A DNA stretch of 64,000 nt from Amoebophrya sp. A120 (GCA_905178155.1 CAJINV010000006.1:2297700-2361699), one strand, 5' to 3'; shown: positions 62 to 64,000, numbered from the stretch's first letter. Made by a program: numbers and translations. Notes: generated by a model from the letters alone, not told the origin.

Positions 62-2672
62 GTAGAATCCCCTCTTTTTCACTTTTCATGAAATCCTCTT
101 CCGACTGGGACACATCTGGATGAAGCTCGTCATTGGACTTGCCGCCTGCAGCTTCTTCTTGTTCACCAGGTTTCTCCTTGTTTATTTCACCTTTATTTTC
201 ATCATCACCGGTTTTCTGTTCTGCAGGGGTCTCTTCCTTTTTCTCTTCTGCTGCACCTTCATCGGAACCCCCGTCCGCTTTCATCTTCACGACCGGCTTT
301 CCATCTGGCCCGAGAACGTTGCCGTTTTCATCTTTCAACACGGTCGGGTCGTCGTCTGATTCGTATGCATTGCAAAAACCGCATGACAAATTTCCTCAGC
401 ATGACAAATTGTCCTAAAGTAGTATGAACCGCATGACAACCTTCCTCAGCATGAAAAATGGAATAATTTATAGTGCGGATTTACCTTATTTGTAATGCAT
501 GTTTTGCAATGCATAATTCATCCACCGCCACGTCTTTCTCGTCTTTCGCATCCCGCAACTTTTTCCCCGGGACCCACAGACAGTGCGTGTCGTCGTCGAA
601 CTCGCACTCCTTTTTCTTCCGAATCGCATTGTCGTACCATCTCGCCAGATCCACTTCTCCCCCGGGGTTGTCCGGCTCGATCATTTTGAACTTCTGCGGA
701 CACGAATGCGAGGAGAAAATACTTGTGTAATTGCAGTAAGTCTGTAAAATGCAATTGCAAAGCATGCAACACAGTTACACTTGTCATGCTAGCCAGCCAT
801 GAAGTCCTACTATCTCGTCATTTGTCGTGTATTCACCGATACTAGCTGTGCGTGACACGCTTTCTTGTCTGTCATGCAGAGCAGATTTGTCGTGCTGTCA
901 TCCCAACAAGACACCTACTGTACTAAACACAGTTTTTTTCCATCTGGGATAACACGGTTGCCAGTCCTCTGCCTTCACCGGGTCGTGCTTGAACACGTTC
1001 GGATCCTCGTCCTCCTTGACCCCATGGTCTCGGCACGGGACCCAGTTAAACGGGTGGCGGATCCAGCTCGGGCAGGTGTACGGATACTGGTCGCCTCCGT
1101 CACGCCACAGCACGTGGATGCACCGGCCTTGGCCGTTTTTCCCGTCCAGGTTGCAGTTATGAACTGCAAAATTATCGTACTAGTAGTAATTGCAATACAA
1201 ATTAGCCCAGCATGACAAATCGAATTTGTCATGCTGTTTTGCCTTTGGATGGACATTTGTAATGCATGGCTGCGATTACTACGAGTACGATACTTTTGCA
1301 CAGGATAGCAGTCCGTCGTCTCCGGGTCCGTGTTTTGCAAATCGTTCACAATTCGTGCTATGCATTGCAAAATAGTATTATCGGACTTTAGTGGTTCTAC
1401 TAGAGATTCTTGCAAGACAAATTTCAATTTGTTGCTGAACCAACACTGTAGTGCTGCAAAACTTCTACAAGCAAACGCAGTTTCTAGACCGATGAGATAC
1501 AGGCTACGCAGCTTTCTTCTTGACAGAACAAGATCGATGAAATACATGAAGGGTTGTTCTCGTTGCAAGGATTGGCACTTGTACCGCAAAGTACGATATC
1601 GTTATCTTTGACACCGCATACGTGCCTTCTGCCAGCAGAACTCCTTGCTGGTGTCGTCGCACACGGTCTCGAAAATCTTTCCGCCCTTTTTGCCCGTATG
1701 CTATGCAAAAACGTCCCCGCCTCGTACTCAAGATGCCAAATCTGCTAGGCAAATTTCTCAGCTTTGGGCGCTGCGCATGACAAGCTTGGCCTCGTTGTGT
1801 AATCCTGTTTAGCTAGTTCCAGCAGAATCACAGATCTAGCATACCATGCTGCTTCGAGCATCACCAATTCCAAAATACGACTAGCAAATGCTTTTCATGG
1901 GGCCCCACATAAGAAACATTTTTACCTTGCAGATTTGCATGACAACTTCTCTGGGGTGCTGGGGAGGTTTTTAGTACACTGGATAGCCCGGGTAAAAAAC
2001 CCACGTCTCCGTACCGAACAGCATGCGGTAGTTGATGTCGTTCTGGCGCTATGAACTGCAAAAGCATCGCACTCGTATAACTATAAATGCATTACAAATT
2101 TCGTCAGCATGAGAAATAAAATTTGTAATGCAGATTTACCTTAAGAAAAAGATTTGTAATGCATGATTGCAATCCGCGTACGATACTTTTGCACAGGATA
2201 GGCGCGGCGCGTGGGCAATTTGCATCGTGTCCGTTAACCGGTTTTTCCGCAGGAGAGAATCTACGTCCTTGGAGGTGGTCCCGAGGTTGCACTGGGTTTC
2301 GGAAAGCGCGGCGGAACTGTTCTCCTCGTCATCGTCGTCCTGACCAGCATCCTCCAGCGGTGGTCGCGGAATCAAGGAACGGTTTTTTTCCAGGATGAGA
2401 AAAGAAGATGTCTTTGCCGATTTGTCAGATCTTCTACTTGATGGGGCCGAAGCAGAACACCAAGGCGCCAACGGCGCAGGGACAGAAGGGAGCGAGGCAC
2501 TTCTTGATGGGGCCGCAAAGCTTGTTGAACAACTGTTGCGGCCTCGTCTCCAAGTAGTTACGCCACCCGTAGTTGTAGTCCACCTCGGGATCTCCACTTG
2601 AAGATCAGCGTGGTCTTCCGGGACGATAGAAGCCCCCGCGGCGTCTAGAAGATGCCGGGTCAGCCAACCCAT
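62..2672 (-). CDS. Cys-containing hypothetical protein, 3' end runs off the window; 6 introner introns plus a partial one
   Basis: Removing the elements at 2050, 1697, 1359, 1158, 705 and 364 (each plus 5 nt) gives one ORF: MGWLTRH...HAPR|QNDINYRMLFGTETWVFYPG|KKGGKIFETVCDD...QKAR|IVNDLQ...TTDC|NLDGKNGQGRC...WQPC|PQKFK...AVDE|SDDDP...EGILL. Confidence 0.75.
364..515. mobile_element. Introner, A-like
   Basis: TIR tatgcattgcaaaa; TSD attcg/attca. Confidence 0.85.
705..951. mobile_element. Introner family G, degenerate
   Basis: AAT..ATA; TSD acacg. Confidence 0.8.
1158..1307. mobile_element. Introner family A
   Basis: TSD gcagt. Confidence 0.9.
1359..1620. mobile_element. Introner, degenerate TIR
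   Basis: TAT..ATA; TSD cgtgc. Confidence 0.8.
1697..1985. mobile_element. Introner family F
   Basis: aaaaacgtcccc TIR; TSD gcccg. Confidence 0.85.
2050..2200. mobile_element. Introner family A
   Basis: TSD ggcgc. Confidence 0.9.
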
Positions 2673-3251
2673 ATTTTTGATCGGGATGTTTGACGATTTA
2701 CGTATTCTAATTTTGTTTCCGTACTAGGGTTAGATTTAGAACAATATCCGTATCGATTGATCTACTGCTGCTTCCTCGCGTCGCGTACTTGTATCGATCT
2801 TCCGGAAGTAGAATGAAACACGACGAAAATTGGCTGGTTTAGGAACTACAAATAAGACGAACACCGGCTTCCGATCGGGCGAAACTAGCGAGTAGTAGAC
2901 TGAGCTATTGGAGCTACTAATTAGTACTAGTACACCACGTGCCGAATTGGAATTACTCTACGTCTTGCTCGTGGAGGTCCCTCATTTCCTCGAATAGTTC
3001 CCTCATCAAGTGACACACGATTTCGAGCTCGACAAAGAACTTCTGTGGTCGAAGTTCTAGAAACAACTTTTACTTTAGTACAACACTTGTTTTCGGTTGT
3101 CATAGTGGTCTCATCGTCATAATCTTGATCATAATCTTCTGATGATCGATCTATCAAAAATCAAAAATTCTGTAAAATTCATCGTCTTTAGCCAGGGGAG
3201 CACAACTGCATCTGCACCTGAGTGTGCTTTCGTTCCATTCATTCTGTTTAT

Positions 3252-6200
3252 TCAAAAATAATTCAGCAACGCCTGCTTTCGCTGCTCAGCCGCGTCTGCA
3301 GAATGATCGTCCAATTTTGTTTGGAGGTGGCCCTTTCTGCTTTCATCCGCTCTACCGGAATTCAACATCGTGGTTTTTGCGGCTCCTGCCGCCGCAGTTG
3401 TTCCAGCGCTAGCTGCTTTCTCACCCTCACTCCCGGAGTTTAACCTGATCTTTTTCTCTACTGGTGCTTGTTCACCTCGGCCTCGCGAGGTTGTTGTACA
3501 ACTTTTCGGATCCTGTAAAAGCAACTCCTGCTGTCGTGCCTTTTTCACGGTCGTCGCGATGGTGCGCAGGGGCAATGCTGTTGAAATAAGTGAAGTCCCT
3601 GGTGGTGGTGCTGGCGCGCCGCCACTGCTACTTATACTCGCAGACGCTGTAGTGGAAGTCGCAGATGAATCCATGATGTGCGCGAAAGAACTGGTTCCCC
3701 TCTCAACATCTGTGGTTCCTCGACGTTCCCCTGACGATGTTGAACTAGCTGCCGTGTCGTGGCTACTAGTACTGGGGCCGCTGTTGATGTTGTACCCATC
3801 ACGACCATTCTGTTCCTCACAACTCCTGCTTTGAAATAGATGCTGTTCCTCCTCCCCCTCCTGCTGTAGTTTCTTCGCCACCGTCGTTTTGATTCTCGGA
3901 ATCATATCGAAAATTTTCGAGCCAAAATCTTCGAAACTTGGAAACGAAGTCGCTGCAATATGATTTTTAAATCCATTCTCTTCTTGATCATTAGGCTGCT
4001 GTACACCAGCGACCGGAGTCGAGGCCACACTGTGTTCAGTGCCACTCCTTTCCTTGCTTGACGAAGACTTTTTCTTTTTCTTCTTTTCCGCCCTGCTTGA
4101 TGTTCGCTTACGTGGTTTTTCTGCCTGGGTTGTAGTTTCTTCGGCCAACAACAACTCATGATCATCGGCTTTAGTATTCATCTCGGAAGTTCTCGATGAT
4201 TTTCTGCTTTTCTTTTCTTTACTGGACTTTCTATGGCGGCGGTGGGGGGCGGGTTCCTCGTCTTTGCTATCATGTTGCCCTGTGCCACCTCGATGGACCA
4301 TGGAGTGACGCGCCAGGTGGTCTGACAGTACCGATTCACTTTCACAGCCTTGGGCTTGGCGTCGACGTGGGTCGTGGATTAGTTGCTGTTTTTGTGCAAC
4401 TGCAAGTTTGTCATGCTCCACGTCCTCTTCGTCAACATCATGCGCACCATGGTGCTTCACCTCAACATTAGAAATCGGCGCGGATGTATTAAACATCATG
4501 CTCTCAGCAGCCGCTTTGTTTGACGCTGCGGAAGGCGAAGGTCGTTGGTACAACTTCTCCGTTGTTGTATTATCGCTGCTTACTTTTCTGGACGACGACG
4601 ATGAAGCCGGTACAACTCCTAATAAGTTTAGCGAAGTTTGTTGATGCTGGTCGTTATGGGAATCAACATTCGCTCGTCCTCCTCCTCCTCCTTCTAGATG
4701 ATGATCTGTAAATTGATCGTGTTCCAAGGATCCCAGCCTGCTGCTTCTACTCCCCGAAATCTTAACCTTCCTTGTGTTGAGAAGCGTTGTAGAAGCAGCC
4801 ACCGGGGGCACAACCCCACCGCTGCTCTTCCTCGTGTTTTGATCCAGTTCTGACGTCGAGCTGAAATTCAGCGGCTGTATAGGGGTTGTGGCACCACCAG
4901 CTTCAGATCCGGACAGAAATTGATCCAACGGACTGGGTGCGGCTCTACTCCCGCTCCCAGAAGCCGGCGCGACTGCCGGTCGTGTTTCTGCACGTTCGTG
5001 TTTGCTCATGTCCCCAGTATTTCTTCGCCTAGTCGACGTGTGGTCGGAGGAAATAAAGCTTTGCGCCGAGCTGCTGCTGACACTGATGCGCGGTCCAGGT
5101 ACTCCACCAACGTCGGAAAGGACATAAGAACCCGGGGAGTGTCTGGCCGCTTTGGGGCGGATGAAATTTGAATCTCGTTCCTCATCGAAGTTCAATTTAT
5201 TCTCTCCAGCAACTTCAGTCTTGTTTTCCAAAGACCACGACGACGAAGCTGGTTTCATTTCCCCTAAGGTCGAGGACATTGTGCAGGAGGGTTTTCGTGA
5301 TGCTGGAGGATCATGTGCAGCAGATGACAAGGAATCACGACCATAAAGCGTATCCTGTGCAAAAGTATCGCACTCGTATTGTAATCATGCATTTACAAAT
5401 CGTTCTCTTAAGGTAAATCAGCATTACAAATTTTATCTCTCACGCTGAGAAAATAATTTGTAATGCATTTATACGAGTACGATACTTTTGCAATCCATAA
5501 AGCGAGGAAGAAGACAAAACTGATGTGGTCAATGGTGTCGCACTTGTTGAAGCAAAACTTAAGCCCGTCGCACTACTTGCGGAAGTAGATGCGGAGGAAG
5601 AAGCAGCTCCGGAACAATTTTTGAAGGTTTGATTCGACATAATTCGGGGCTCCGGGCGAAATACAACAGCACCTGCACCGCTGGGGAGGACATTCCCACT
5701 TCGCCTGAATTTGTTCAGCATTTTCGACGACGTGCCTTTATTTTTGACGCGCCTGCTTCTTTCAAAAGCCGAGATTCCACCAGCCGAAAACTCTTCGGAA
5801 ACGTAATTTGCACCCAGCTCCGACTGCTGTTCATCTTCGTCTTCATCATCAAAAATCTGGTTCTGATTGTGGTTATAACCTCGTCCTCTGTCATGATAGT
5901 TGCTTTCTTCCTCTGATGTAGTTGACGTTGACGCGCCGTCGACGTCGTGTCGAAATCGAGCATGGATCTTTCGTCGCTCTTCCTTCGGAGTCACCTGGAT
6001 CCTCGCCCGGGCGCTGCGTAGAGGGGCGGGCGGGGACTGGAACTCGAACTGGAAGAAGTTCTTCGTAGCATCAACCGACAGCTTATCTTGCCCTCCTCGT
6101 TCTCCATACCGCCCATTATTCAACCCCCCGGAGGTCTTTTTATTCGTACGGCTTGTTCCAGTAGTTTTGCTCGCAGAAGTGATTTTGGTCGTTTTCGACC

Positions 6201-9200
6201 TCGTCTTCTTGCGAGCCAAAAACAAACCAGAGGTGGTGGGCTTCGTGTTGTTAGAGTGTGCTGCAGACCGCGAAGTCGCCCTTGGTAGTTGTCTTTGCGC
6301 GGCGGTGGAAGGACCTGTCTTAGCGGTTGCGGTAGTCGTAGTTCCATTTCCATTAGGTTCCGAAAATAAAGAAGTCCCCGTAGGCCGCACCAAAGCCGCG
6401 CTATTGCAGCTAGTATTCATCCCAGCGCTAGTACCACCGCCAAGCAGCAGCTGCACCACATCGGAGCCGGACATTTTTTGCAGCTCCTCATTGTAATTTG
6501 GACAGAACTTTGACAACAAACCCTTCATATCAATTGTAAAAATGTCTGGGTCTGGAAGAATTCATGTTTGTCATGCTTGTCTGGCATGACTCTTAAATCT
6601 GTCATGCACGTTACCCAAGAGCTCCGTTTTTCTGTGATGCAGAAGCGCAGTTTGTCATGCAGGATAGGCTTCACCTAGGAGCTCAGAAACTTGTCATGCT
6701 GAGCCAGCATTTGTAGCCCCATCATGACACGCCACCCAGCATCACAAGTTTCCAGACCCAGACATTCTTACATTTGATACTTCAGCAATTGGTTCTCCAT
6801 CTGCAGCTGCGAGGCGGACGCGGATGCTGTTGTCGTATTTCTTTGGTTCTCCATCTGCAGTTGCGAGGCGGACGCACTTGCTGTCGCCGTGTTTCTCTGT
6901 TCGTGCATTGCAGGTAGAGGTCCTTGCGGTGGTACAACAGCTACAGCTTCAGGAGGAGCTGCAGGTATTTCCATGAGAATCGCTGCGCTTTGATTTGGTC
7001 GTGTAACTACGGAAGTGTTCGTGCTAGTAGAGTCCATTACTGCGCTGGAGTTGCCCCGCGGGAAATCATGACCCGCTTCTAGTACAACTCCAGGAGCCCC
7101 CGCCGAAGTTTCATTTTTTCCACTAGCAGGAGCAGCTCCTCCAGTGGAGGTCGTGATACCAGAAGATCTCGTAGTACCACCTCCACCTGGTACGACGTCC
7201 ACTGATGTAGTTGGAATTATCGCTGAGACAGTGGAGGAGGATTCTGCTGCAACTGCAGCAGTGGAAACAACTGCAGGAGGCATCTGGTCGGGGTGCTGCG
7301 CAGAAGCTGAAGCGCAAGTGGTTTTTTCTCCTGCAACTTCAGCTCTATTGCGGCCCCGCATGAGAACAAGTTCCGCTTCCCGTTTCTCCAACTCTAACTG
7401 TTTCCTCTCTAGCTCCAATTCCCTTTTCAACCGGATCCGCTCCCGAATTTGCTGTAGCTTTTCCTGAAAACAGCACCCCTGTCTCTTGACCAGCTTCACG
7501 CGTAACACGAACCCGACCAGCCAAAACCAGTGGTAGCAGTTGTTCCTGACCGAAACTTTGTGCTTCGCTTTCTTAGCCCAACGGAAGAGTAAAGGGATTA
7601 ACAGTGTTTTCACGCACGCACGCAACATTCTCGTGCATTTCCTCGCCCGCTCTTGCCGGAATTTTCTCCGGATCCGTTCGCACCACTTGTGAATCCGGAG
7701 CAGGTTTCGCGCCATAGTCTGCAGCTTGTGAAGCAATTTGCGGACCCGGATTTCGCGCAGCAACTTCCTTTCACAATACAAGCAAAATTGCACCGCGAAA
7801 ACGCAGCGGCGGAATTTTTTCCGCAGCACAAAGTGCTTGATCTGTCGCTGCAAGGTTGATTTATCCGCGTTTGCTATCGCGTGCAGGATTTTCTCTTGTA
7901 AAAGCCCGGACTTCAGGAACAGCTTGGAAATACCCAGTTTGAAGAAATCGTTGCTGTTTTTATTACATGAAATCGTCCTAGAACGCTGTTTTTGGCTCAT
8001 CGCACAGGAGCTTGCGTCGCCTTTTTGCATGCTAGCAACTTTTTCTCCTTCATCCACCACTTCCGAAACAAACAACTCGGCAATCAGCTTCGTCGACATC
8101 AAGGCCTCCACGAGTAATCTGGGATCCTGCTCCAGTTCTGGTCCAAAGGAGCAGGTTTTTGATCTGTCACACTGGAGAAGATCAGTACCTCCACTCTCCA
8201 AAGAAGACGACCCTGCTTGTTCTTCTTCGGAGGTTGATATCTTACCAACAAGTTTCTCCATTATACTTGCGTAATTCACCCGGAACGGCCAACCATTTTT
8301 CATCAGAGGAATTAATTCCAGAGTTCCTGACTGCTTCAACTGCAGAAGAGTGACATTGTCGTCAAATTTTCTCGGTTTCGCCTCCAGATTCGGTTTATGA
8401 AATGGAATGACGTCTGGGTCTGGGACAGTGGAACTTGTGATGCGTGTCTTGCATAATTCCTGGAAAATCTGTGTTGCAAGAGGAGCAAATAAAGAGGAGC
8501 TTGCACTTGCTTTGCCATGCAAAAACGCAATTTGTGACGCGTGGTAGGCATCAGCAGGCGTCTTTCAAACTTGTCATGCCTGGCTGCCATTGCAAGCGCT
8601 TCAATCATGCACAATTCAGCATCACAGATTTCCAGACCCCGACATATATGCAATCCATACGGTTTGAAACACTTGATGTAGTGTATCTGGGACTGTTGGA
8701 GCGTCTGTAGCAGACTTTCTAAATCTCGCAGGTATTGCTTGGTAACGGAAGTGGGTTTCGTTGCTTTATTGGAGGAAGAAGCAGTTATGCAGCCGGGATG
8801 ACCCCCCCCTGCTAGGTCGTGTGTCGCGCCACCACATGCCGACAGGCTGAGCGGATGGGGGCGACCACGGGGTTGCTGTGGTTCCGGAGAATCACGATGC
8901 TGCCGCACACTTTCCTCTTGCTCGACGTCCACACCTGCTTCTGTAGTTGTTAATGTTTCTGTCGGTATAATATTTTCAAATAACTGCTCTAGTTCTGGCG
9001 GCATTTCGACCACGTTTTTCTCAAGCCAGTTCAATGTTGAATACTGCACCTCACCGGCGTAGTGGGTGACGATAAAGCTGATGTCGAGATTGTTCTTAAT
9101 CAGGTTTGAGCAGGACTTCAAATCTTTATTGGTCGGCTTGCGGAAGTAAGGAAATAATCCCGATGATCCGGTTGTACTATCACAAATCCGCTTGTTGTTG

Positions 9201-12200
9201 ACAACATTTTCGCCATGCTCCTTGTGCAGAACCTGCAAAACCTCCCTCGTAAACCTTTCGTCGGTGGTCTTCACATTTTTGCGAAGCTGCGAGAGGTGGT
9301 CGTCCAAGGTCCGGAAGCAGGACGCAATCGCGGTGGAGCAGAGATACAACGGAGGTGCAGCTTCAGGAGGATGAAACGGAGCGTCCTGGCCGTTTTTCTG
9401 TTCTTCCACGGACGATAGCGAAGATGTTGCCGAAGATGGCAACATCATTATCCCCTCCTTGACATACAGATCGCGTTCGAAGATGAGGAAATTGTCCTGG
9501 AAAAACGACTATGAAGTGCAAAAGTGTCTGGGTCTGGAAGATTCTGAGACTTGTCATGCACGTTTTGCATGGGCCATGATGTCTGTGATGCATGTCCTAG
9601 CATCACAGAATTTGTGAGGGCTCTGTGATGCCTATTCCGCATGGCAAATGCCCTCTCCGCGTGGCCAAAATTGCATTCCCTTTGCTGCTTATGCAATACA
9701 GATTTTTTTGGAAAAATCCAAATGCAGCACCACAAGTTCGGATTCTTCCAGACCCAGACATTTTTGCATTTGATAACGACTGCAGCCGTTCGTTCGCCAG
9801 GTTGATGCACATCTGCTCTAGCGAATTTTCCGCGAGCTGCTCAAACCCGTAGATGTCCAAAATTCCGATGTATTTAGATTTACTCTTGCTGGTGATGTAG
9901 TTGTTTTTGATTTTGCGGTTGAAATGATCATCATGATCATCTAATACTTCTTCCTCATCTTCGTCCCCTTCCCCACAGCTAAAACTAGAACAATTCGAGG
10001 ACACGCAGCTGCTACTTCGAGACCGCGCCGCAGCAGGCTTGTGGTGTTCGCTTGAAGATGTTTTGTTCTCGTCCGGGATGAGTTTGTCGTTCACGCACTT
10101 TTCCACGATGACATATGTGAAAAGTCTGTTGTACAGCGTTTTTCGCAGGGCGGTGAGACACTGGTAAGCTTGCGTTGCGGACCGGGAAACGGTGATCCTT
10201 TCAGTTTCACCGTGGTGGTCTACAACTTTGGTCGTCGACGTGCTGTTTTCATTCTTTTTAAAGCCCCTGCCAGCGCTGATGCTCATTTCCCGGCTGATCA
10301 GTGCTCTTTCCAGATTTTTCCCGCAGATCCCGAGATACTTCGCCGCCACAGAAATCCCGAGTTTCTTCGTATCAGCGCGGACCTCGATGCTGTTGTCGTT
10401 GGTTTTGTTGATGCTTTTGCTTGCGTTGTTGTTCCGGTGTTGTTGTTCAAACGAGTCGCCTGCCTCATCATCATCATCATCATCTCCGCCACCACTAGAG
10501 ACGAATTCCACACCCCCCAGCAACGCTATTCCCTTCAAAAAATCCCAGACTTTCATGGTCTCAAAGTCTTTTTCCAGGTTCAAAACCTTCATCGCTTCCT
10601 CAAATTCTTTATGAACTGCAAAAGTACTATCGCACTTGTAGTAATTGCAGTCATGCATTACAAGTATTTTTCTTCAGGTAAATCCGCATTACAAATTTCA
10701 TTTCTCATGCTGTGGAAATTTGTAATGCATTTATACGAGTTCGATGCTTTTGCATTTCATATTCTTCAAAAAACTTCTGATCGATCTTGTCCTCCTGTTT
10801 CTGGACTCTTCGCGGACTGTTTCTGGTTTTTTCATAGTCCCGAAACATTTTCCAGTCTTGGAGCGTTTCGGGTTCGACTTGTTCATTATCGTTTTTATCG
10901 ACGATGCTTGATTTCTTCATATCCCGACTTTTATGTTGATCTTGATTTCGCGAAAGCAAGTAGTAAAACACGTGAAAACTGTATGCAGGAAAGAAACTGT
11001 GTAAGTGTAACTTTCTTGGAGGAATAGCATCACAAGTTTGCTCTTCAGAACACAGAAAACCTGTCATGCGGAGCTAGTATCAGTGAAAACACGTACGAAA
11101 AGAACCTCTGATGCATGTGTCTAGCATGACAGGTGATAAGTGTTTTACATACGTCTGCAACACAAAGTTACACTTACACAGCTTTTTTCTTGGATAAACT
11201 GCGCTCCCCCATCTCGCTGTTCCACCCGCACACCCGGCTATCCTGTGCAAAAGCATCGCACTCGTAGTAATCGCAGTCATGCATTACAAATCTCCATCCC
11301 AAGGCAAAACAGCATGAGAAATTCCACTTGTCATGCTGAGCTAATTTGTATTGCAATTACTGCTAGTACGATACTTTTGCAATTCATACCGGCTGGATTC
11401 CAGCAAATAGGTTTGAATTTTCGCGGTTTTGAAATCCCCATAGGGCTTGTTGAAGTGCAGAGTCGAGAATTTTCCAAACCGGCTGGAATTGCGATTCCTT
11501 AAAGTGGTCGCGTTTCCAAACGCTTCCAGTAAAATGTTCCCCGCTTGTAATTTTTTGTTGTGGTTTTGTACGATTTGGTGTCCGACCACAGGCTGCAAGT
11601 TGTTTCCAGCATGATCGTCCGCACAAGGCTGGTGTCCACCCCCTTGCCCTTGGAGGTAGTCGGGAATAGAAGTTTTCGCACTAATATTCCGCTCCCTCGT
11701 GATATCGCAAGAAAAAACTGTTACAAGTACACACTTGTAGTCAATTTAGCAACACAAATTTCTCTGCATGAGAGAGAAAACTTGTAATGCAGAAATCCGA
11801 AGGGAAAACACCTATGAAACGAGGCTGCCATGCGTATCCGGCATGACAGAGCTTGTCTGTCTTGCTCGTCCTGCAACACAATGTGTAACTGTAAAACTTT
11901 TTTCTAAACCATACGTGAAGTATTCCACGAGAACCTTTGCGGTTTCGGTTTTCCCCGCACCGCTATCTCCAGAGATGATGAAGGCTTGGGACGAAGAAGT
12001 AGAAGAAGCACCAGCGGAACATGTAGCACCTCCTGTTGTACTCTGGTCTACTTCCTCGCCAGTTCTCGAACCAGAAGTTCTTATCCTCGCGTAACTACCA
12101 CTACCCTGATTCACTATCCGCCTGAGAGCAAGTTCCGCCAACACGTGGGGATGCGGCTTGGTTTGTAGTTGTTTAGAAGTGGTCCTGGTCGATGTTCTTG

Positions 12201-12417: not shown

Positions 12418-13039
12418 TTTCAAGTCGAAAGCGGATTTAGGATTCTGCTTTAATGTTGAGTACTCAACAGGGTTTTCCGAACAAAAAAGGCCAAAAAGAA
12501 AAACTTCTTGTTTGAGTATATATAAAAAGCCTACAACTTACAACGGGGGAGAAAGCCACAATATAGAGAAAGGCGATCCGGAAGAACGTAACGGTAACAT
12601 ACAGCCCATGACCATGGAGTTTGATCGGGAAAACGTCGCGCAGAAAGGGTTCCGAGTCGATCTTTCCATCCTACTCCAATTGATGTACAAGCTCTTCGTT
12701 GACAACACGCGACGAAGGGCAGATCACTTGTCGACGAAGCGAGTAATACGAGAAGATGAAGATCTTGATAGAGCAGGATCTGCTGGTGCGATCATTTACT
12801 CATGTAGTACATGTAGTGGTCGGCGCTCCATGGAGAAGCGAACTTCAATCGAAAGCAGCCAACGAGAACGATGACACGACTCCTACAACTCGGAGGTTTG
12901 TTCATCACCATTGATCACCATCACATCGACGGTGGAAACGAACAACAATAACTGATGGAAAGAAGATCGCAACGGCAAATGTCGAGAGCCACGCGAGTGA
13001 GTATGAACAACATGAACGGGTGAGGAGCTACGTAGCATT

Positions 13040-52627: not shown

Positions 52628-55600
52628 TCAACCTTCGCCCAAATCAGGGGTCGGCCGGCTGTTGTCCGTGCTCCTTGGCGCGGCCATCAGAGGCGGTTCT
52701 TCTGACATTGGCGCCACTTGCGAGGCCCTGGTAGCTCCCGCAGAAGTGGTCCCGCCAACCTGCGACGCCCTCGTCGTCCCAGCACCTCCACCAGCAACAC
52801 TGTGGCGCGAGGCCGCGGTCTGCGAAGCCCGTTGTTCCTCTCTTTTCGATATGGAATGTAAAAGTGTCTGGGTCTGGAAGCTTGGAACTTGTAATGCTAG
52901 CTTTCCATACCTAGAAAATCTGTATTGCACTATAACCAACAAAAGTCGCAGCCTCTTTTGTCATGTTGGGAAGCTAAGGGCTGGGCGTCCCTGTCGTTCT
53001 GTAAACCTTAAAACGGTAGCCACTTACTCGACAAACTCTAAATAGAATAAGTTTGGACAAAGTGATCACTACCGAGAGACAACAACAAAATAAAGGCTCC
53101 TGGGACGGCAGCCTCTTTTGTCATGCAAAACCGCAGTTTGTCATTCGGATTGCCTACGAGAAAGCGTTTTGGGAAGTTGTCATGCCGGATTGCATTCGGA
53201 AGTGTTTTGTTTCATCATGCACATTTTAGCACCACAAGTTTCCAGACCCAGACATTTTTGCATTTCCTATTCGAAGGGCTTTTCGACATCTCGGAACTGC
53301 GTTTGTTCATCTCCGAGGTCCGTTTTTTTGACGCCTGGCGACTGGATCGACCAGACGAGGCATTGTTTGCCCCCGCCTGATATGCATTGCAAATATGTCT
53401 GGGTCTGGAAACTTGTAATGCTAAAAGTGAATGATAGACGCACTGCAATACGCAGCTATGCATGACAAATTTTTTGGCTGCCATGTCTTACTTATTCCGC
53501 ATGGCAAACTGCGTTTTTGCATGACAGGTAAGAGGGCCTTTTCGTGCCTATGCAACACAGATTCTCGAGTCATGCCAGAAAAGCATGACAAACTTGCAGT
53601 CTTCCAGACCCAGACATTTTTGCATTTGATACTTCAGAGTGGGAAGAGTGGCTGTGGTGTGCGGATTTATTCATTTGCGAGGTGCGTTTGCTGGAGCGCG
53701 ATTTCCGGCTACTTCTTCCTCCCGAGGATTTCATAGCGTTCTTAATGGCGTCGCCGAAGGCTATCATTTGTAAAAACGTCGACGTCCCCACCCCACAGTT
53801 GTAATGCAATTCTGCATACTGAAGACGTTTCTCATGCGGAGCCCAATGAGAAGCATTTTCTAGTTGTGTTTCGGAGTTTGTCATGCTCCAATCAGCATGA
53901 TGTGCTAGGTTTGTGAAGATGCTGGTGAACTACCTAAACGAGATGACACTACGAGGCCAGACTTGTCATGCGCAACAACCAAGCCTCGTGGATTATTTGT
54001 CTAGCAGATTACCCATCTTGACTATGGGGTGGAGACGTTTTTACACAGGATAAAGGCTGCGCCGTCCTCTAGGATGTTCACCGAACTCTCCAGGCGCTGT
54101 CGCTCCATCTTCTCTTGCTTTTCCGTCAGCGTGGCCAGCTGCTTTTTCAACACGGAGACCCGCTCGTTCCGGCTCTTCCTGTATCCTGTGCAAAAGTATC
54201 CGATACTCGTAGCAATCGCAATACTGCATGACAAATCTTCAATCTTAAAGTAAATCCGCATTACAAATTTTATTCCTGATTCTGAGGATGAAATTCAAAT
54301 TTGTAATGCAGTTTAATACGAGTACACGATAGTTTTGCAATTCATATCCTGCCCTCGTGCGTGCTCCCGAAGGCCAGGGAATTCATCATGGCCGAGGTCA
54401 TCGACTTTTGCTGCTCGGACCGCAAGTCTTGCAGCTCCTTTTTCAGACCGTCAATCTCCTTCGCCAGGGCCTCCTCCCGTGGATCGATGCCCCGACTGAC
54501 CAGCAGGGCAGATTTGCTGCGGCCCGCGAGGCTCTTATCCGGCTTCCCGTCATCACCCATAACCAAATGCTCGCTCTTCCTCCGAACGACTTGCCGATCC
54601 ACCTCACAGCATATCCTGTGCAAAAGTATCGCACTCGTAGTTGTAGTCGCATTTTTGCACGACAAACCTCTTTTTCAAGGTAAATCAGCATGAGAAATTC
54701 CATTCGTCATGCTGAGCAAATTTGTAATGCGATTACTACTAGTACGATACTTTTGCAGTTCATACAGCACCAGGCGCAACAGCATTTTATCGGGATCACG
54801 ACGAAAAGGACGACCAAGATATGCATTGCAAACATGTCTGGGTCTGGAAACTTGTAATGCTGAATGATCATGATTGACTGTGCCTTTGAGTGCATTGCAG
54901 CATGACAAATGTTTCAAACGCTCTCTCATGCGCAGAACGCATTACAAACTGCGCTTTTGCAGGACGAAAGTGTGGCGCTTTGTGTGCTGCCTATGCAATA
55001 CAGATTTTTTAGGAATGCGAAACATGCAATACAGGTTCAACCTTCCAGACCCAGACATATTTGCATTTGATACAAGAGGAAGATGAGCAAAAACCCGAGC
55101 AGGGTTCCGAGGATCATCATGCAGTACCAGTTGTATCCTGAGCAAAAGCGCCCCCGCCTCATAGCTAACATGAGAAATCTGCTAAACAAATCAGCCAGCT
55201 TTGGTTGTTGCGCATGACAAGTTTCGCCTCGCAGTGTGATCCTGTTTAGCTTGTTCAGCAGCATCACAGACCTAGCCTATTGTGCTGATTTGAGCATTAC
55301 AAATTCCACACCACGGCTAGAAAATGCCTGTCATCGGGCTCCGCATGAGAAACCTTCTGAGCCTGGGGACGTTTTCACACAGGATAAGTTGCAGCTTTTT
55401 CCCTTCTCCTCCATACTTTGGTCGTAACTCCGGATTCCCGCGGGAACGGTTCTTCCATCCGGGTATTGATAGTGGTACTCCTTCGAATCGTATCGCAACA
55501 AAAAGTGTTACAGTATACACATTGTGTTGCAGGAGCCGCAAGACAGTAGACAACCTTTGCCATGCAAGAAATGGTTGCGAACTTCATTTCGTACGTGTTT

Positions 55601-57977
55601 TATTCCCTTAGGATCTCTGCATTGCAAGTTTTCTGTGCCACACAGAGAAAATTTGTGTTGCTGAAGGTCCAAAAAATGTTCAACTGTAACACTTTTTTCT
55701 TGTGATAAAACGTCCGGGGGCACAATCAAACACGGCTGGTTCGCCACATCGAGCATGTATCATTTGTAAAAACGTCCCCACTCCAGAGTCAAGTTCTTGG
55801 GGATTTTGCAACATAAACGTTGAAGTTTTGGGAACCACGCATAACAAGTTCTTGCAGGCTGTAGTGTAGTGCAGATTAGCAAGCGAAGCCGCATAGCACA
55901 TTCATCTCCTCATCCTGTTTACAGCATTACAAGTTCCGAAACACTATGGGAAATGCCTCTCATGGGGATGCGCAAGACTAACGCTCTTGTGTGCTTCCAG
56001 ATCTGCATGACAAGAACTCTGGGGTGGGGGTGTTTTTACACAGGATAGCATGGTGGTATTGTCAACGCCGTACGCGGCGATGTCAAAATTCGGGTTTTTC
56101 ACCACCCGTACGCGCGCGTAGGTCGTCGTTTCCGTCTCCCCCGTTTCGGCGTTTTTCACGGTTTCGTTTCTGAACAGAAAGGCCTCGTCGATGTGGTCGT
56201 GCGCGTAGGAAAACCCGGTCTGCTCCTTTTCCTTTTCGAAAAGAACCCCGAGGACCACCCGGTCGAGGTAAATGTCCGATTCGAGACAGTCGTAGACAAA
56301 CTCGCAGCAGGTCGGGTAGGGTTCTTGTAGGTCTTGGTTGTCGTTGTGGTACTGCTCTACCTCGCACTGGGCTTTCCGATACAGAGGTGACGGGAGCAAA
56401 ATCTTCTCCGACAACACCATGCGCGTGACGAGGGGCACTTCTGGCGTCGAAGAAGTAGATTCTTCTGCTAAATGTTCTTGTATGTCTCTACTCCCGCAGA
56501 CCGCCGGCAGGCACACATGTTGCGGCTCCCCTTGTGGCTCGATACTCTCTCCGTCTTGCCCCGCCTGCGAGGAAGCAGGGGCAGCGAGAAGCCCTTGCCC
56601 CGTCTGCGCGGCCTGCGAGGAAGCAGGGGCAGCGAGAAGAGCCTGCTTCGCCTTTGGCTTTATCTTTGATCCACCTGGTGGTGGATCTTCCCGTCCAGCG
56701 GCAAGAAAAGAAACGCCGGCTTGTTGTTCCTCTGTCGTGACGTTGTTGGTGCCATTTTGCTCTGGGTGGAGCGGGTTCGCGCTGGCCCCCCCGGCTCCGT
56801 CTCCTGTTACTGTTTCATTGTTCGTACCGCCTGCAGTTCCCGAAGGTTCTGCCACAACTCCTGTCGTTGCGTTTGTACTACCGTCTGCTTGCTGTGTTTC
56901 ATTACTACCGCCTGCATCTACTGTGTGACCACCCGCTGCACTGGCTCCGGTCCCGTCTGAAGACGTTGCCTCTACTTCTCCAGCTGCGCTCTCAGTTGCA
57001 TTTGTGGTCCCCTCCCCGCGACCACTCTCATCGCCTTCCTCAATTGCCCCGGCCTCGGCCGGGGTTCCCTGCAGGTGCGGTCCCGTGGCCGCCGGCGCAC
57101 ACCGACCATTATCGTGGACGAAGTGCGTGTAGAGCTCGACCACCTTCCGCCTGATCACCTCCTGGTCGTTTTCCTCGTCCTTCGTGCCCATAATTTGCAG
57201 TTCGACCACCGGGATTCCGTTGTGGGTCGGCCCCTTCCAACCCGTCGGCAGGAACTTTTCTTCTTGCTCATGTTCTTGAGCCGCATGATTTTGAATACTA
57301 TGCTTCTGGGTTAGGATTTTCTTGTTCTGGACGAGCTTTGTAGTCCTTGACGTGGTTGCGAAAGAGGAAGTTGGGACTTTTTCGACCGTTTTTGCGCTTC
57401 TTGTTCTTTCCTCACTCGTCCTGGAAGTTGTTGATGATGCTCTCTTCTTTTTTACCAGCACTCGCTCTTGTTTATTTCTTGCCGGCGAGAAGGTCCTCCG
57501 CGTGGAAGAAGATTTTCCATTTCCCAGCTGAACCGCGGAGGTGACCGAACAAGTACAACATATCGAAAGAAAAACCTGTTATTTCATCACTGTGAACTTG
57601 TAAATCGCATACGATAAGTACGTGTTTGTGGACTTGCTTCTCGTACACATGCAGGACAATGCATACTTTTTGGCGTGTTTATTTTCCTTGGGTGGCTGCT
57701 CACATGGCAAACAACTTCTCATTTGTGATGTGGAGCAAACTTGTGATGCAATAAAACTAGCTTGCACAATGAAAATCATCACAGTGAAACAGTTTTTTCG
57801 TGGGATACTCCAGGTGTTCAAAATTATATCAACGCCGATGATGATCCACCATGACGACGACGACGACCTTCCTGTGTAGCATAATACTCCCGGAATTAGG
57901 TTGGACATTCGTCCCCCGATCAGTTTGCAAGCACTTCTCGTCCGCCGGCCACGACTGGAGGTCGCCCGCTGGTTCAT
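52628..57977 (-). CDS. Type-I membrane protein (~919 aa) with cytoplasmic coiled coil; 10 introners
   Basis: Spliced length 2760 nt. TM rebuilt across an element: MMILGTLLGFLLIFLL|VVLFVVIPIKCCCAWCC; coiled coil EEALAKEIDGLKKELQDL. Confidence 0.75.
52850..53269. mobile_element. Introner family B carrying a nested insertion
   Basis: TAT..CTA; TSD ttcga. Confidence 0.85.
53381..53631. mobile_element. Introner family B, now GT-AG bounded
   Basis: TSD cctga/cttca. Confidence 0.85.
53762..54052. mobile_element. Introner family F
   Basis: TSD aaggc. Confidence 0.9.
54182..54346. mobile_element. Introner family A
   Basis: TSD tcctg. Confidence 0.9.
54612..54764. mobile_element. Introner family A
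   Basis: TSD cagca. Confidence 0.9.
54820..55072. mobile_element. Introner family B
   Basis: TSD caaga. Confidence 0.9.
55134..55386. mobile_element. Introner family F
   Basis: TSD agttg. Confidence 0.9.
55491..55707. mobile_element. Introner, E/G-like
   Basis: TIR tatc.caa.aaaaagtgttacag; TSD aatcg/aaacg. Confidence 0.85.
55758..56047. mobile_element. Introner family F
   Basis: TSD gcatg. Confidence 0.9.
57561..57807. mobile_element. Introner family E
   Basis: Decayed TSD caaca/ctcca; frame kept. Confidence 0.8.
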
Positions 57978-58731
57978 TTTTTTTTTTCGAAAACCGCGAA
58001 AATTTTGCTAGTAATAGACACCACCAACAAGCTGACGCTATCAAGAATGTCGAAGCTGCTGAAGCACTATTGTTTTTACTTGTTACGCTAGGTGGCGACT
58101 CTTAACACGAGACGATTTCCAACTAGTACAACGTCCTTCGTCTATTTGTAAACTGATGATGCGGGTCAAGAATGTGCAAGATTTCTTTCTTAGCTATAGG
58201 GACGAGGAGGAGGCGATGTTGTATGTTCATGTTCCTGTTTCTTCTATCATCGGGGACCACCACAATAGATGAAACAGCTGTGGTGCTGCACAAGATTCAT
58301 TTTCAAAAACTGAAGAGGTGAACGACGACGACGACGACTGTCAGCATCAAGCTGCACATGATGAAGTACGTAGGATTCGTCGTAGTTTTACGATTTGCTC
58401 CTGCTTCACGACGCAAGTATTAAAGCGCACGACATATCGGAACGAGCGAAGAAGACTAGGACGTGGGGGCATCAGCGCGGCGCAATAGAAGGGGTGCACC
58501 ACGACGAATTTCCAGAAAGACGATCAAAGACGAACGAGAAGCTGCTGCACACCAGGACGATACATAGGACTAGAGGATGAAGAACGACAACGAAGAGAGA
58601 CGAACGATGCTAGGCAATAAAAAAAAGCAAAACCAAAATGATTTAAACCATCGGGGTCACTCCATAATTGCATGGATTTGCGCACAAGAGACAGAGAGAA
58701 TGAGAAACAGAAATAACCAGAACTACATTTC

Positions 58732-61201
58732 TCACAAAACCACGAAGCAGGAGGCGCTGAGCGCGGTCGCGACATCGACATTGCTCCTTCACACGAACAC
58801 CGTGTACTGGTTTGTCACGCATCACAAGTTCTTCAGTCATGCCAGACAAGCATGACAAACCTCGCACAAGCATGACAAACCTTCCACACATATTTGCTTT
58901 TGATAAAAGTACTCGAAAAACAAATTCTTCCCCTCGGTGGGACAGTGGTCGAGTTGGATCCGCACCAGCCGCTGTAGCTCCTTCGCGTCCAGGTTCGCCG
59001 CACATTGGAGAAAGAACGCTTCCTTTCCCCTCGTCTTGTACTCTCGGAGAACGTAGCAGCACTCCAAAAAGCGCTTCCGGAGTATGAACTGCAAATATGT
59101 CTGGGTCTGGAAGATTCTAAGCTTGTGATGCTGTCTCTGGATTCAAAAGAAATCTGTATTGCGTGACCAGCAACAGGACTCCAGTTTGTGCTACGCGGAG
59201 AGGGCATTTCCTATCCGGAATAGGCATTCGGAAGCCCAGCAAAAGTCTGTGATGCTAGTGCATGCATTACAGACTCCATGGGTCATGCAGAATATGCATG
59301 ACAAACCTGGCAATCTTCCAGACCCAGACATTTTTGCAATTCATACGTAGGTAGACGTGCTCATTCCGGTTGATGTGCTGCGGGGGTGGATCCTGAGCAA
59401 AAACGTCCCCACGACCCCAGAGAAGTTTGGCATTTGTAATGCTGTAAACAGGATGAGGGGTTTGGTTTGTAATGCGGTCGCCCTTGCAGCTATTAACGTG
59501 CACTACCATAGTACAGAGACCACGAACTTGTCATGCGTGACTTCCAACACTTGTCGATTTGTGTAGCGCAGTCGCCATCTTGACTCTGGGGCGAGGACGT
59601 TTTTAGTCAGGATAAGGTGGTTGGAAAACCGGCGGGGCGCTGGAAGAAGAGGATTTGTGCTGTGGAAGATGAGATGCGCTCATCACCGCGGGGGGCGACA
59701 TCTTGTTTATTTTGCAATCGACGTCACACTTGTTGTGAATTTGCCGGTGGTCGTGTTTATCTTTATTCCCTACATACTTAACTATCCATACCTCGCTTGT
59801 GCTTTTCGGGAAGATGAGGACCTTCCACCTGTTGTCTTTGTGCCGAAGATTATTAGTCATACAGAATGACTTCTTCCTCCGTTAGCGGCTTGGTGAAGAT
59901 TTTTTCACAAATTTCATCTACCACCTTCTGATCATTCTTGCTCCTTCACACGAACACCGTGTACTGGTTTGTCATATGTATCAGCGTCGCTTAAAAATAC
60001 TGAAGATTCAATACGCCTTCGTCGTATGAAGAGTCGTGTCGTACTTACTTCTTCGTGGTAAAGAAATCCACTGCAGCAGAGGTTCCAGCTCGTCTTCCAC
60101 TTCCTTGATGTGCAGTCGAAGATTGAAAATAAATCAGTAGCGACCACAAGAGCTTGTTGTTCAACATGAAGATTTCAATTTCTTCACTGTATTTTATTCA
60201 CCGTCGCTAGTGTTTTGTCCAGATTTTTCAGCGCTTTCGGCACTAAATCGTTCGAGATCATCTTCTTCGTTGGAATCCATTTTCCGTACTCTTCCAACTT
60301 TTTCTCCTCCGCGTCAACATCGTGCAAGTCCTTTCGTATTATGAATTTTTGCAAAAGTGTAATCGTTTACTAGAACAACTTGCAACTGCTTTTTACATCA
60401 CAAATTTGCGCAGCATAATGCGAAAGGCAATTGGTAATGCGGATTCAGCTTGACAAAGAAATTTATGCATAAACGCACTAGTACGAGTTAGTACGATACT
60501 TTTGCAGAGGATAGGTATTTTTGTCAGCGAATTTACCGCTTCGTCCACCTCGCGAATGGAGCTGGAGTAGGAGCTATGCACTGCAAATAGAAGATGTCTG
60601 GATTTCCAATGCAAGACTTCAATGACAAGAAGATCTGTAATGCATCAATGCGATAATTGTTGAGCAGTCCTTTTTTTGTCGCGCTGGATTGAAGTCATTT
60701 GTCATGCGTTTTACGAATGAATTACGAATAAAGAGCCTTTCCAAACTTCTGATGCTGTTCTACTGCCTGATTGTGATTATACAAGGGGCTAATAGTATTG
60801 ACCCAAGAATGCGAGTACAACTTACTATCACTATCAGCAAGACAAATTTCCAGATCCAGACACATTTGCACTTGATAGGAGAAAGAAGTTCTGGTCTGCG
60901 GCCTCCTGGTGGTGGTCGTTGCGGAAGATGCGGTCGCGGTTGTTTCATTTTCTCGCAGCACTGTTGACAAGAAGGATGTGCCTTGTAGTTTTGCGGCTGA
61001 ACAAGATGATGCCTGGTTCTCTTGCGGTGGTACTACAAGAACTGACCCCCGCGGCCCATCCGAGAAACAATCACGCGTACAGTGCTGCAGGCTCTTGCTG
61101 CTCGAGATCATGCTGCCCCCGGCCGGGACAAGAAGCGCAAGATCATGATCGCAGATAAATGACTCCGCGTGGAGGTTCTGCAGGAGGTCACGCAACAACA
61201 T
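58732..61201 (-). CDS. Hypothetical protein; 4 introners plus probable GT-AG introns (60104-60201, 59944-60044, 58787-58912)
   Basis: In-frame joins RTSFS|YSSSIREVDE..KI|RKDLHDVD and FQPP|PQHINRNEHVYL|RKRFLECC; structure at 59700-59870 unresolved. Confidence 0.5.
58818..58905. mobile_element. Half (one-ended) family B introner
   Basis: Only one TIR remains (..cacatatttgcttttgata). Confidence 0.65.
59083..59345. mobile_element. Introner family B
   Basis: TSD cggag/cgtag. Confidence 0.9.
59389..59614. mobile_element. Introner family F
   Basis: GAT..ATA; TSD gggtg/aggtg. Confidence 0.85.
60340..60513. mobile_element. Introner family A
   Basis: TSD cgtat/ggtat. Confidence 0.85.
60575..60877. 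mobile_element. Introner family B
   Basis: TSD ggagc/ggaga; related to 32704. Confidence 0.85.
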
Positions 61202-62110: not shown

Positions 62111-64000
62111 TTATTTGGCCGTATGATCCTTGTCCCCTCCCGCTTTATCAGTCCGATGCTCGTGCTGTCCAGAAACTGCCGTGCGACCAACGCGGCCGTC
62201 AGAGTTGTCCATTGAACCTCCCACAGCTGCCACGTCCTCGTCGTCCAAGCGTGGTCTTTCTTTCGGTGCAAAGTCATCACTTCCAGACGTCTTGTTTAGC
62301 TGTACTGGCACAGTAGAGGGTACTAAGGGACGAGTCCTGGGGGACGATGTAGAAGAAGTGCCAGCTTTTGTAGTTTTTTCTGCGCCATCGTCGATTGCAG
62401 CTTCTTGCTGCTGCACTTGTTCATCTCCTGTTGTAGCTCCTGCAGTTTTTCTTTTATCGCAAGAAAAAACTGTTTCACTGTGAACTTGTGATGCATAGAA
62501 CGGAACGCAAATGTGTTTCTCTTGCTATACATGCAAGGCATTGGATTTTCACGCGTGTTTTCCCTTGGGAAGCGCGCATGACAAATTTTCAGTTTCATGT
62601 GTAGCAAACTTGTGATGCAGATCCTGCAAAGTCATCACAGTGAAACAGTTTTTTCGTAGGATATGTTTCCTCTTTATTACTACAATCGCTTTGAGGCTCT
62701 TTCGCCCGCACTCTCTGAATGTGGTCCATAACCATATGGCGTTCGCAACTGTTATACTCTCAACTGTTACATGAATTTGTGATGCCAGAAAGGCAAAAGT
62801 GAAAGTGGAAAGGTTGCGCCTTTTGCATTACAGGTTTGGAGGAGCACAGTGTAATGCTATAATCTAGCGCGTCGAGAACTTGTCATGCGGAGAAGGCTTG
62901 AAAATGAAATTGTGAAAAGTCATGATAGTGTTTTTGCATGACAAATCATGTAACAGTTGAGAATGTAATGTTTGAGAGTCCCATAAACCAGTTTGCGCAC
63001 GTCGACTTCTTGCGTCAAACTTGCCACCGGAAGTTCAACATCCCGAAATTTCCGCACGTAGTTATGCATTGCAAAAGGAAAAGCATCGTACGTAGTATAA
63101 ATCGCATGACGAATTTTATCAGGAAGAAAATTGGAATTTGTAATGCAGATTTGGATAGGAAACCAGATTTGTCATGCATTCCTGCAATTCATACGAGTAC
63201 GATACTTTTGCACAGGATAGTAGTCGTTCAGCCACGATTTCCGCGAAACTAGAAACGCACCCAGCTCCTGCTTGTACGGAATCATCATGCCGAGATCCCA
63301 GATTTTGATCCCGCGCTCGAGTAAAAACTCGCCGAGCAGAAGCAGCTGCACCTTCCCAGCGCCCGAATTCTCCTCCATATTGTCACGGTTGAAAAAGCCG
63401 GTCAAGCTCGTGTAAATCAGGCCGTTAGTGTATTGTGAGGAAAATAAATCGTCCCCCCTCGCCCTAGTGAAGATTGATGAAAAAGCGTATGCTTCTAAAA
63501 AATGTTTGCGATGCTGATTTGTGACAACATGAAATCCAGCGGGTCCGCCACATCACGCAGGCGATTTCTTTGTAATGCTGTTACGCCTACCTTGCAGGCC
63601 TCTGCTATTCGCCTACCTTGCGCCTACACCATCCAAAGCACCCCTAAAAAGGCTCGGGCTTTGCCTGCAGTGCCTCACTGCAATACAGAGCTAATTTGTG
63701 TAGACAAATCCAGCAACAGAAATTTTCGTTCGAATTGGAGACGAGGGGGGCTTTTTTATTTCGATATTGTGTACCCGAGCTCGCCTGCAATCAGCTGCCC
63801 TTTGTCGTTAAACAGCTCGACCGACCAAAAATTCACGTTCTTGTACACTTTCGGTGCAGGAGGAGGCGGCGGAAGTGAGGGCCCCTTCGACGAAGCGCCA
63901 GAGGACGACGAAATTTTCGCATTTTCCTTCCCAGCTGCCGATCGCATGTTGGCGCGACTAGTCGTGCCTGTGGTGTGCACGACCTCGGTGCGCGGCTTCT
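62111..64000 (-). CDS. Leucyl/phenylalanyl-tRNA--protein transferase-like (Aat/ATEL1 family) protein, 5'-partial; 4 introners
   Basis: WSVELFNDKGQLIAGELGYT|NGLIYTSLTGFF..GAGKVQLLLLGEFLLERGIKIWDLGMMIPYKQELGA fits the eukaryotic L/F-transferase-like pattern; frame continues to the stop at 62111. Confidence 0.82.
62455..62663. mobile_element. Introner family E
   Basis: TSD tcttt/tgttt. Confidence 0.85.
62735..62985. mobile_element. Introner family C
   Basis: TSD aacca. Confidence 0.9.
63063..63219. mobile_element. Introner family A
   Basis: TSD gtagt. Confidence 0.9.
63431..63766. mobile_element. Introner, singleton TIR type
   Basis: TIR ..cccccctcg; TSD tagtg/ttgtg. Confidence 0.85.

Follow-up and report, generated by a model that had tools for sequence, protein, structure and literature searches.

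We analysed a stretch of 64,000 nucleotides from the genome of Amoebophrya sp. A120 (GCA_905178155.1, CAJINV010000006.1:2297700-2361699; hereafter the window), whose genes are interrupted by many short elements that share an internal word, TTGTVATGC. A total of 79 elements were delineated between coordinates 364 and 63219 (a span to which no strand is assigned), all with TAT...ATA ends, terminal inverted repeats (TIRs) and a flanking 5-bp direct repeat, and in these respects they resemble MITEs (miniature transposable elements with inverted repeats). They are 149-420 bp long, sort into 21 BLAST clusters and together occupy 18,339 bp, or 28.7% of the window.

Elements of this kind have been described in A120 as introner elements, which number in the tens of thousands, make up about 17% of a genome in which no U1 snRNA was found, and have inverted repeats of the form TAT, seven variable nucleotides and AAA, flanked by direct repeats of 3-5 nt (PMC7789003). 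The same paper describes the non-canonical introns of A120 as about 240 nt long, without GT-AG borders, capable of forming hairpins, belonging to many families and present in tens per gene in co-oriented genes (PMC7789003). The elements in the window match those introner elements in all of these features of the repeats, introns and genes as the main text gives them (Farhat et al. 2021, PMC7789003): the terminal repeat with TAT and an A run, the direct repeats of 3-5 nt and the removal without GT-AG borders are all found here. The main text of that paper describes terminal inverted repeats and direct repeats only, with no internal word, spacing or conservation, and the word is not mentioned in the searchable text of PMC7789003 and its supplementary legends or of PMC12130899, figures lying outside the scope of the search; a literature search for the word as a string returned primer lists only. 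Introner elements themselves are already known.

A word common to families with different ends

Exact matches to TTGTVATGC, counted on both strands of the whole window, number 182, where 2.52 are expected from 100 dinucleotide-preserving shuffles (standard deviation 1.51, maximum 7), and the enrichment over background on which the preliminary description of this DNA depended is thus plain. The 79 elements hold 174 of these matches (9.5 per kb) and the other 45.7 kb hold eight (0.18 per kb), which bears out the earlier statement that the word is nearly absent from exons and intergenic DNA. Four of the eight outside matches belong to truncated element remnants (at 19 and at 58819/58850/58870), and two lie within exon sequence (4408 and 40800), which is near the chance level. 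Ranking 7-mers in the element interiors by the number of clusters in which they occur, an unbiased procedure from which the terminal 25 nt of each element were left out, places pieces of the word on top; GTCATGC has 128 occurrences, in 63 of the 79 elements and 16 of the 21 clusters, with 11 occurrences outside the elements. The word is present in clusters with unrelated terminal repeats, and the claim that several copies occur whatever the TIR family stands.

Alignment of the copies on their core shows that the information spans RAAY-TTGTVATGC-D, or 13-14 positions, with none in the flanks. The fifth letter of the core is C in 94 copies, A in 54, G in 34 and T in one (n=183), single changes at the other positions being rare. 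Scanning with a weight matrix of 15 columns gives 329 sites in the elements, 26 outside them and five in a shuffled window; since the matrix was trained on the data counted these numbers are descriptive, the exact-word counts being independent of it. Elements have a median of four matrix sites (range 0-7). Copies in both orientations are found in 65 of the 79 elements, and to this extent the recurrence in both orientations noted previously is correct; it does not extend to the 12 elements with copies in one orientation only (five sense and seven antisense, including all eight members of family C) or to the two without copies. The abundance of LSC, FVMQ and HDK in spurious open reading frames, also noted previously, is a direct result of translating the word. 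Searching the 64 kb window against Rfam 15 at the gathering score gave no matches.

The strict criteria used for delineation were TAT and ATA 80-600 bp apart, at least 14 of 20 matching TIR positions, and a flanking 5-nt repeat with at least four of five matches. They yield 57 elements, of which all 57 have the 5-nt direct repeat at that level, and no elements in either the shuffled or the reversed window. Relaxed and gapped criteria plus inspection extended the list from 57 to 79. Because reversal preserves inverted repeats, the reversed sequence is unfit as a control for the gapped detector, and the shuffled and strict-criteria controls were used.

The elements belong to several families with distinct ends. 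Family B has 24 copies in the window, each about 262 bp with the terminal repeat TGCAAAAATGTCTGGGTCTGGAAG; family A has 18 copies of about 150 bp (TGCAAAAGTATCGTACTCGTAG) and family C eight copies of about 290 bp (TGTAAAAACGTCCCCACC), and families D, F, G and others have fewer copies, various lengths and quite different terminal repeats. The pattern TAT-N4-[TC]GCAAA fits 41 termini on the left and 39 on the right; in families D and G the initial TAT is present without the A run at that place. In the alignment of the 18 family A copies, the 150-bp element at 40024-40173 shows the typical four copies of the word in the layout < < > >, at 40066-40074(-), 40097-40105(-), 40113-40121(+) and 40131-40139(+), and an element in the opposite orientation (1158-1307) has copies at 1210(-), 1226(+) and 1257(+). 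The family B element at 6528-6779 has copies at 6568, 6652 and 6691 (+) and at 6739 (-), and the 262-bp member at 41061-41322, which has perfect 20-nt terminal repeats, has copies at 41100(+) and 41273(-) and five matrix sites in all. Six matrix sites, all in one direction and antisense in the transcript, are present in the family C element at 36966-37247, with exact matches at 36997(+) and 37158(+). The family G element at 25391-25625 (terminus TATGGCGTTCTCAAATGTTAC) has copies at 25433(+), 25530(+) and 25576(-), and the family D element at 30939-31157 (terminus TATGACAGTGCACAACTCCCC) has three copies and is skipped, together with its 5-bp repeat TGCTC, by a transcript contig. A truncated remnant ending near 58896 retains three minus-strand copies (58819-58878), 31 and 20 nt apart. 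The copies named as examples in the preliminary description (1210-1265, 6568-6750, 25435-25585 and 37000-37170) are present in all four places. The ends of family A are asymmetric, with TATCCTG-TGCAAAAG on one side and TATGAAC, TATGAAT or TATGCAT followed by TGCAAAAG on the other (for example 1158-1307, 40024-40173 and 54612-54764), and this asymmetry is a property of the element and not of the direction of transcription.

Further copies were obtained by searching a metagenome contig collection with a 20-nt word from the family B terminal repeat, which gave 142 loci totalling 860 kb (646 kb non-redundant) with the same element families as the window, the window itself not being among them. Automatic detection in these related contigs adds 443 unique elements, or 522 with the 79 of the window, and these contain 2335 motif sites (mean 4.5); family B is over-represented in this set through the search word, and elements failing the TAT/ATA, repeat or TIR criteria are absent from it. 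Motif density across the 646 kb is 8.5 per kb in detected elements and 0.67 per kb elsewhere, the latter figure still including undetected elements.

Removal of the elements from transcripts

The transcript evidence consists of Logan contigs of runs X3, X4 and X8, which we take to be RNA because an ordinary CT..AC intron is missing from them along with the elements, and because contigs of the DNA run X1 retain the elements. At each element in the segment 30001-50000, contigs of X3 omit precisely that element and a single copy of its 5-nt repeat, and at 11 of the 14 joints analysed no border of the GT-AG type is possible within the ambiguity of the repeat. The cut can be placed anywhere in the 5-nt repeat, and the product is what precise excision of a transposon would leave, although here it arises in RNA. 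Family A elements have GT and AG dinucleotides a few bases inside their ends, yet the observed joints are at the borders of element plus repeat. The ordinary GT-AG intron (31669-31920, minus strand; CT..AC on the plus strand) is skipped by an element-skipping transcript contig and contains no copy of the word, there being no motif matches between 31460 and 32269.

The same holds between 52600 and 58100, where X3 and X4 contigs join exons across all ten consecutive elements and X1 contigs pass from elements into exons at unique-sequence depth; the DNA thus keeps the elements and the transcripts lack them. Three members of family C lie in this region. Transcript contigs join 53756 to 54053 across the element at 53762-54052, which is in the plus orientation. 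Two further members have the opposite orientation: the element at 55134-55386, with five sites that are all sense in the transcript, is removed with restoration of the frame, and so, by the same arithmetic, is the element at 55758-56047, the next piece starting at 56047. The arithmetic is that of one transcript contig which has 250 nt for 54606-56046, or 1441 minus 1191 nt, the latter being five elements with their repeats.

Deletion of all 79 elements, each with one repeat, produces very long reading frames on the minus strand, including 3255-12537 (2528 codons, spanning eight elements), 31768-38850 (1205 codons, 13 elements), 41711-49224 (1200 codons, 16 elements) and 52631-58007 (929 codons, ten elements). 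All of the long restored frames in the window are on this strand, which fits the unidirectional gene blocks described for Amoebophrya. Three exon pieces of the 2528-codon frame match the myosin head domain (E values of 6e-22 to 6e-6). Inside the frame at 31768-38850 there is a tandem array of a 15-nt unit (34643-35070; about 28 copies, 83-94% alike in the core) that would encode a five-residue protein repeat. The segment from 12000 to 16000 is free of elements, has a G+C content of 0.57 as compared with about 0.48 elsewhere, and has open frames on both strands. Raw RNA-seq runs X9-X11, which carry the same species label as the DNA run, place only 2, 2 and 1 reads on 30001-50000 and may come from another strain or stage.

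Placement, conservation and strand of the word

The placement of the word within the elements is regular. Its distance from the ends, a measurement proposed in the preliminary description, falls in a narrow range, 847 of 1036 ends (82%) having their first internal copy at 30-49 nt and only eight having it nearer than 30 nt. Adjacent copies in the same direction are 30-33 nt apart in 529 of 1201 pairs (44%; 292 at 31 nt, 126 at 32, 85 at 33 and 26 at 30), a spacing that ranks first in 12 of the 14 largest clusters. A distance of 31 to 33 bp corresponds to about three turns of B-DNA. The 22-nt spacer between paired copies is unrelated across 21 module types, showing that the spacing is kept while the sequence drifts. 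A strict helical periodicity was considered and rejected, as the family-specific spacings of 18, 20, 39, 49 and 54 nt are not multiples of 10.5, and a helical spacing is put forward for the 30-33 nt class only. The termini themselves score as a copy of the motif in 63 of 1044 cases, and it is thus not generally true that the copies are internal repetitions of the terminus.

The word is also more strongly conserved than the sequence around it. Within the window we used a leave-one-out procedure, in which the motif columns are set in one copy and divergence is measured among the others; pairwise mismatch is 0.06-0.15 for the motif, 0.24-0.31 for the whole interior and 0.09-0.24 for the terminal 30 nt, and the motif columns are 2 to 4 times less variable than the neighbouring interior columns. 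None of 1000 random placements reaches the observed motif value in seven of eight (sub)families, the exception being family F (100 of 1000). In the subfamilies represented by ten or more members, 14 in number and comprising 338 of the 522 elements, the non-consensus frequency is 0.03-0.12 in the motif and 0.075-0.205 at other interior positions, is lower in the motif in 14 of 14, and is similar to that of the terminal repeats. Singleton counts are unreliable for mutations that follow insertion, since variable columns hide singletons, and we instead used close pairs together with tip changes, in which a copy differs from its three agreeing nearest neighbours. Tip changes affect 3.78% of motif positions (509/13,463), 6.28% of other interior positions (2137/34,002) and 3.99% of the terminal repeats; for the motif against the rest of the interior the odds ratio is 0.59 (p about 1e-28).

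These data bear on the possibility that the word is a neutrally decaying leftover from a single ancestor of all the families. A common origin is itself likely, since the TAT...ATA ends and the 5-bp duplication are shared by every family, but a neutral relic should not be less variable than its neighbours in both the leave-one-out comparison and every one of the 14 subfamilies. Nor does it account for flanks that carry no information across families, for a spacing of 30-33 nt that is kept between unrelated spacers, or for one position being free with the others fixed. The leave-one-out, subfamily and tip-change tests agree in rejecting neutral decay of a shared ancestor, which the preliminary description had put forward as the way in which the motif might be explained away, and we regard it as scarcely credible.

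The relationship of the word to the transcribed strand was examined by assigning the coding strand through frame restoration, which was possible for 325 of 637 element instances in the related loci. In each subfamily, insertions occur in both directions with respect to transcription (82 versus 96). Of the copies that are sense in the transcript (UUGUVAUGC) 283 of 490 are intact, and of the antisense copies 246 of 452 (p 0.32); mismatch to the consensus is 6.8% and 7.0% respectively. Transcripts lack family C elements of either orientation, although the three to six copies in each of these all point the same way. In family A the 3'-proximal copy reads UUGUAAUGC, whereas family B has GCAUSACAA there, so that the two are on opposite strands.

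An orientation-proof branch site, one of the roles suggested in the preliminary description, is accordingly not supported: the introns are not of the GT-AG type, the strands are opposite in families A and B, family C is spliced either way, and intactness is blind to strand. The opposite strands of the 3'-proximal copy and the splicing of antisense-only family C arrays do not fit a branch-point sequence a short way upstream of the 3' splice site, and the equal intactness of sense and antisense copies does not fit a branch point under selection in the sense direction only. At the variable position, moreover, the only base shut out is that which would create UAAC in the complement of the word, another point against a branch site. 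Likenesses to the RBFOX (GCAUG) and PUF (UGUA...) binding sites were considered and dropped, since they fit only some variants or have the wrong spacing, and the strand test opposes any reader of RNA. The suggestion of a dedicated splicing factor survives in part, in that a protein reading one RNA strand is disfavoured by the strand-blind results and one that reads double-stranded DNA and acts on splicing is compatible with them.

The broader form of this idea is that the machinery excising these non-GT-AG introns recognises them by the word, either as RNA or, through a factor that marks the element during transcription, on the template DNA. All 79 elements sit where removal is needed, as the restored frames and the transcript contigs without elements attest, and since the elements must be removed, purifying selection on inserted copies is plausible. 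Tip changes are depleted in the motif as much as in the hairpin-forming terminal repeats, and a weaker depletion persists among close pairs. Set against this are the lack of any dependence on the transcribed strand, the 12 elements with copies in a single orientation and the two with none, the splicing of family C both ways with the motif in opposite senses, and the opposite strands of the 3'-proximal copy in families A and B. The strand-blind results make a reader of single-stranded RNA unlikely and leave a reader of duplex DNA possible, and overall it seems unlikely that the word is an excision site.

A further alternative is that the copies are complementary arms of an element hairpin, in RNA or single-stranded DNA, conserved for pairing and not for sequence. 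Folds predicted for the 79 elements have the core positions of the motif paired in 74% of cases, against 60% for the other interior positions, with 37% paired with another copy, and in families B, D and G the outermost copies are predicted to extend the terminal stem. However, the variable letter shows no covariation in mirrored copies, agreement being equal to the expectation under independence in eight of eight site pairs, and in the consensus C would face C, or G would face G, as mismatches. Arrays in one direction, as in family C and much of family B, cannot pair mutually, and a stem has no need of the same word in unrelated families. A role as hairpin arms is thus very improbable. Together, strand-blind conservation and the absence of compensatory change lend no support to a branch site, a one-strand RNA reader or a mere stem.

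A candidate binding site for a mobilizing protein

We propose, with moderate confidence and from sequence comparison, that RAAY-TTGTVATGC is a double-stranded DNA binding site for a putative transposase, or an accessory protein, that mobilizes all of these families. The elements share two features with the subterminal transposase-binding repeats of TIR DNA transposons: several copies of one short word lie inside both ends and are distinct from the terminal repeat, and the word is conserved above the surrounding interior. A transposase-binding site was among the original suggestions, and it fits the subterminal and internal placement, the conservation like that of the TIRs, the indifference to strand and the pairs spaced 30-33 nt apart; it is unproven in that no transposase was found in the roughly 0.7 Mb searched. 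Under this proposal the protein would read the word on duplex DNA and would bind the two members of a pair, which lie some three helical turns from each other, cooperatively on the same side of the helix. Continued transposition would be limited to lineages in which the sites are retained, and this would account for the presence of one word in families that look unrelated. Excision from RNA would depend on the terminal hairpin and not on the word.

Several observations weigh against this proposal, in addition to the circularity of the matrix counts mentioned above. The copy nearest the end points inward in family B and outward in family A and is asymmetric in family C, and such variable direction would be unusual for one protein placed in a fixed position relative to the cleavage site. 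Constraint is also seen among close pairs: in 38 pairs less than 8% apart the difference is 4.7% in the motif and 6.5% in the comparison positions (p 0.006). Constraint in both tip changes and close pairs could reflect selection on inserted copies, and therefore a host-side role such as splicing. In ten pairs with less than 5% divergence the values are 2.6% and 4.0% (p 0.21), and two pairs are less than 3% apart; selection before and after insertion is inseparable here because the nearest sampled copies are generally about 10% apart. A single shared transposase is moreover an assumption, given that the terminal repeats differ between families. Of 114 raw reading frames of 300 codons or more in the window and the related loci, the 94 largest gave no match to a transposase or integrase in Pfam, and no long element combining these ends with a coding frame was found in about 0.7 Mb. 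Farhat et al. 2021 likewise report no putative transposase in A120 in the main text (PMC7789003), and A120 is described elsewhere as holding TIR-flanked introners with integrase-like frames (Gozashti et al. 2025, PMC12130899).

The Pfam matches in the 94 frames are to host genes only, such as myosin head, Rpb1, SNF2 and C-5 DNA methylase. The last includes two adjacent frames in locus L012 (2624-6079, plus strand) that match C-5 cytosine DNA methylase with E values of 4e-16 and 2e-37 and look like one gene split by an element or intron. A search for TIR pairs 700-12,000 bp apart gave four candidates, of which the 4.2-kb one consists of two elements around a host exon. The other three, of about 1 kb (L015 505-1608, L054 9990-11020 and L061 11013-11984), have introner-type ends and 5-bp repeats and are four times the usual length.

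Short subterminal motifs are a feature of several transposon systems, including Ac/Ds (AAACGG) and En/Spm (12-mers), and hAT elements make 8-bp duplications. The elements described here differ from hAT elements in having a 5-bp duplication and in being so short that the copies fill the whole interior. Tc1/mariner elements of the Sleeping Beauty type have inverted repeat/direct repeat (IR/DR) ends, each with multiple binding sites set a fixed distance apart, and in this they are like the present elements; as a point of difference, the inner copies in family A repeat a terminus-like word in the direction of the end, and those in families B and C do not. In the hAT element Herves, the short subterminal motif CG/AATTCAT is sufficient for transposase binding (PMC3143072), and the present word resembles hAT subterminal motifs in being a word of 8-12 nt, distinct from the terminal repeat, that is repeated in either orientation over the first 100-250 bp from each end. 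The Emigrant MITE has subterminal repeated motifs to which the transposase of the related element Lemi1 binds cooperatively (PMC1636448). Emigrant and the A120 elements are both non-autonomous TIR elements with short repeated motifs inside the terminal repeats. Unlike Emigrant, the A120 elements are introns that are cut out of RNA, have a 5 bp duplication and share the word across families whose terminal repeats differ, and their partner protein is putative. As introns they are similar to the nonconventional introns of Euglena, which lack GT-AG borders, have pairing ends, are removed precisely and are abundant beside ordinary introns (PMC12501133). The Euglena introns differ in their signature of N3-CDG ... 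CHG-N5-6, and the description of them includes no transposon ends, duplication or internal word (PMC12501133).

It is also conceivable, although we think it distinctly improbable, that mobilization and excision are both served by one sequence-specific protein, perhaps derived from a transposase, that reads paired words on double-stranded DNA, mobilizes all the families and marks the elements during transcription for the precise removal of element and duplication without GT-AG borders. If introns were defined from the DNA template in this way, both orientation-blind splicing and the conservation of the motif would follow.

The spread of the elements and their excision from RNA are the two questions on which the word bears. 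A 13-nt word common to families with differing ends offers a bait for the protein that recognises it, as well as a simple classifier of elements. If that protein belongs to the excision machinery, the word would open the way into a non-canonical splicing system, and if it is a transposase, the whole diversity of introners in this lineage would be explained by a single family of enzymes.

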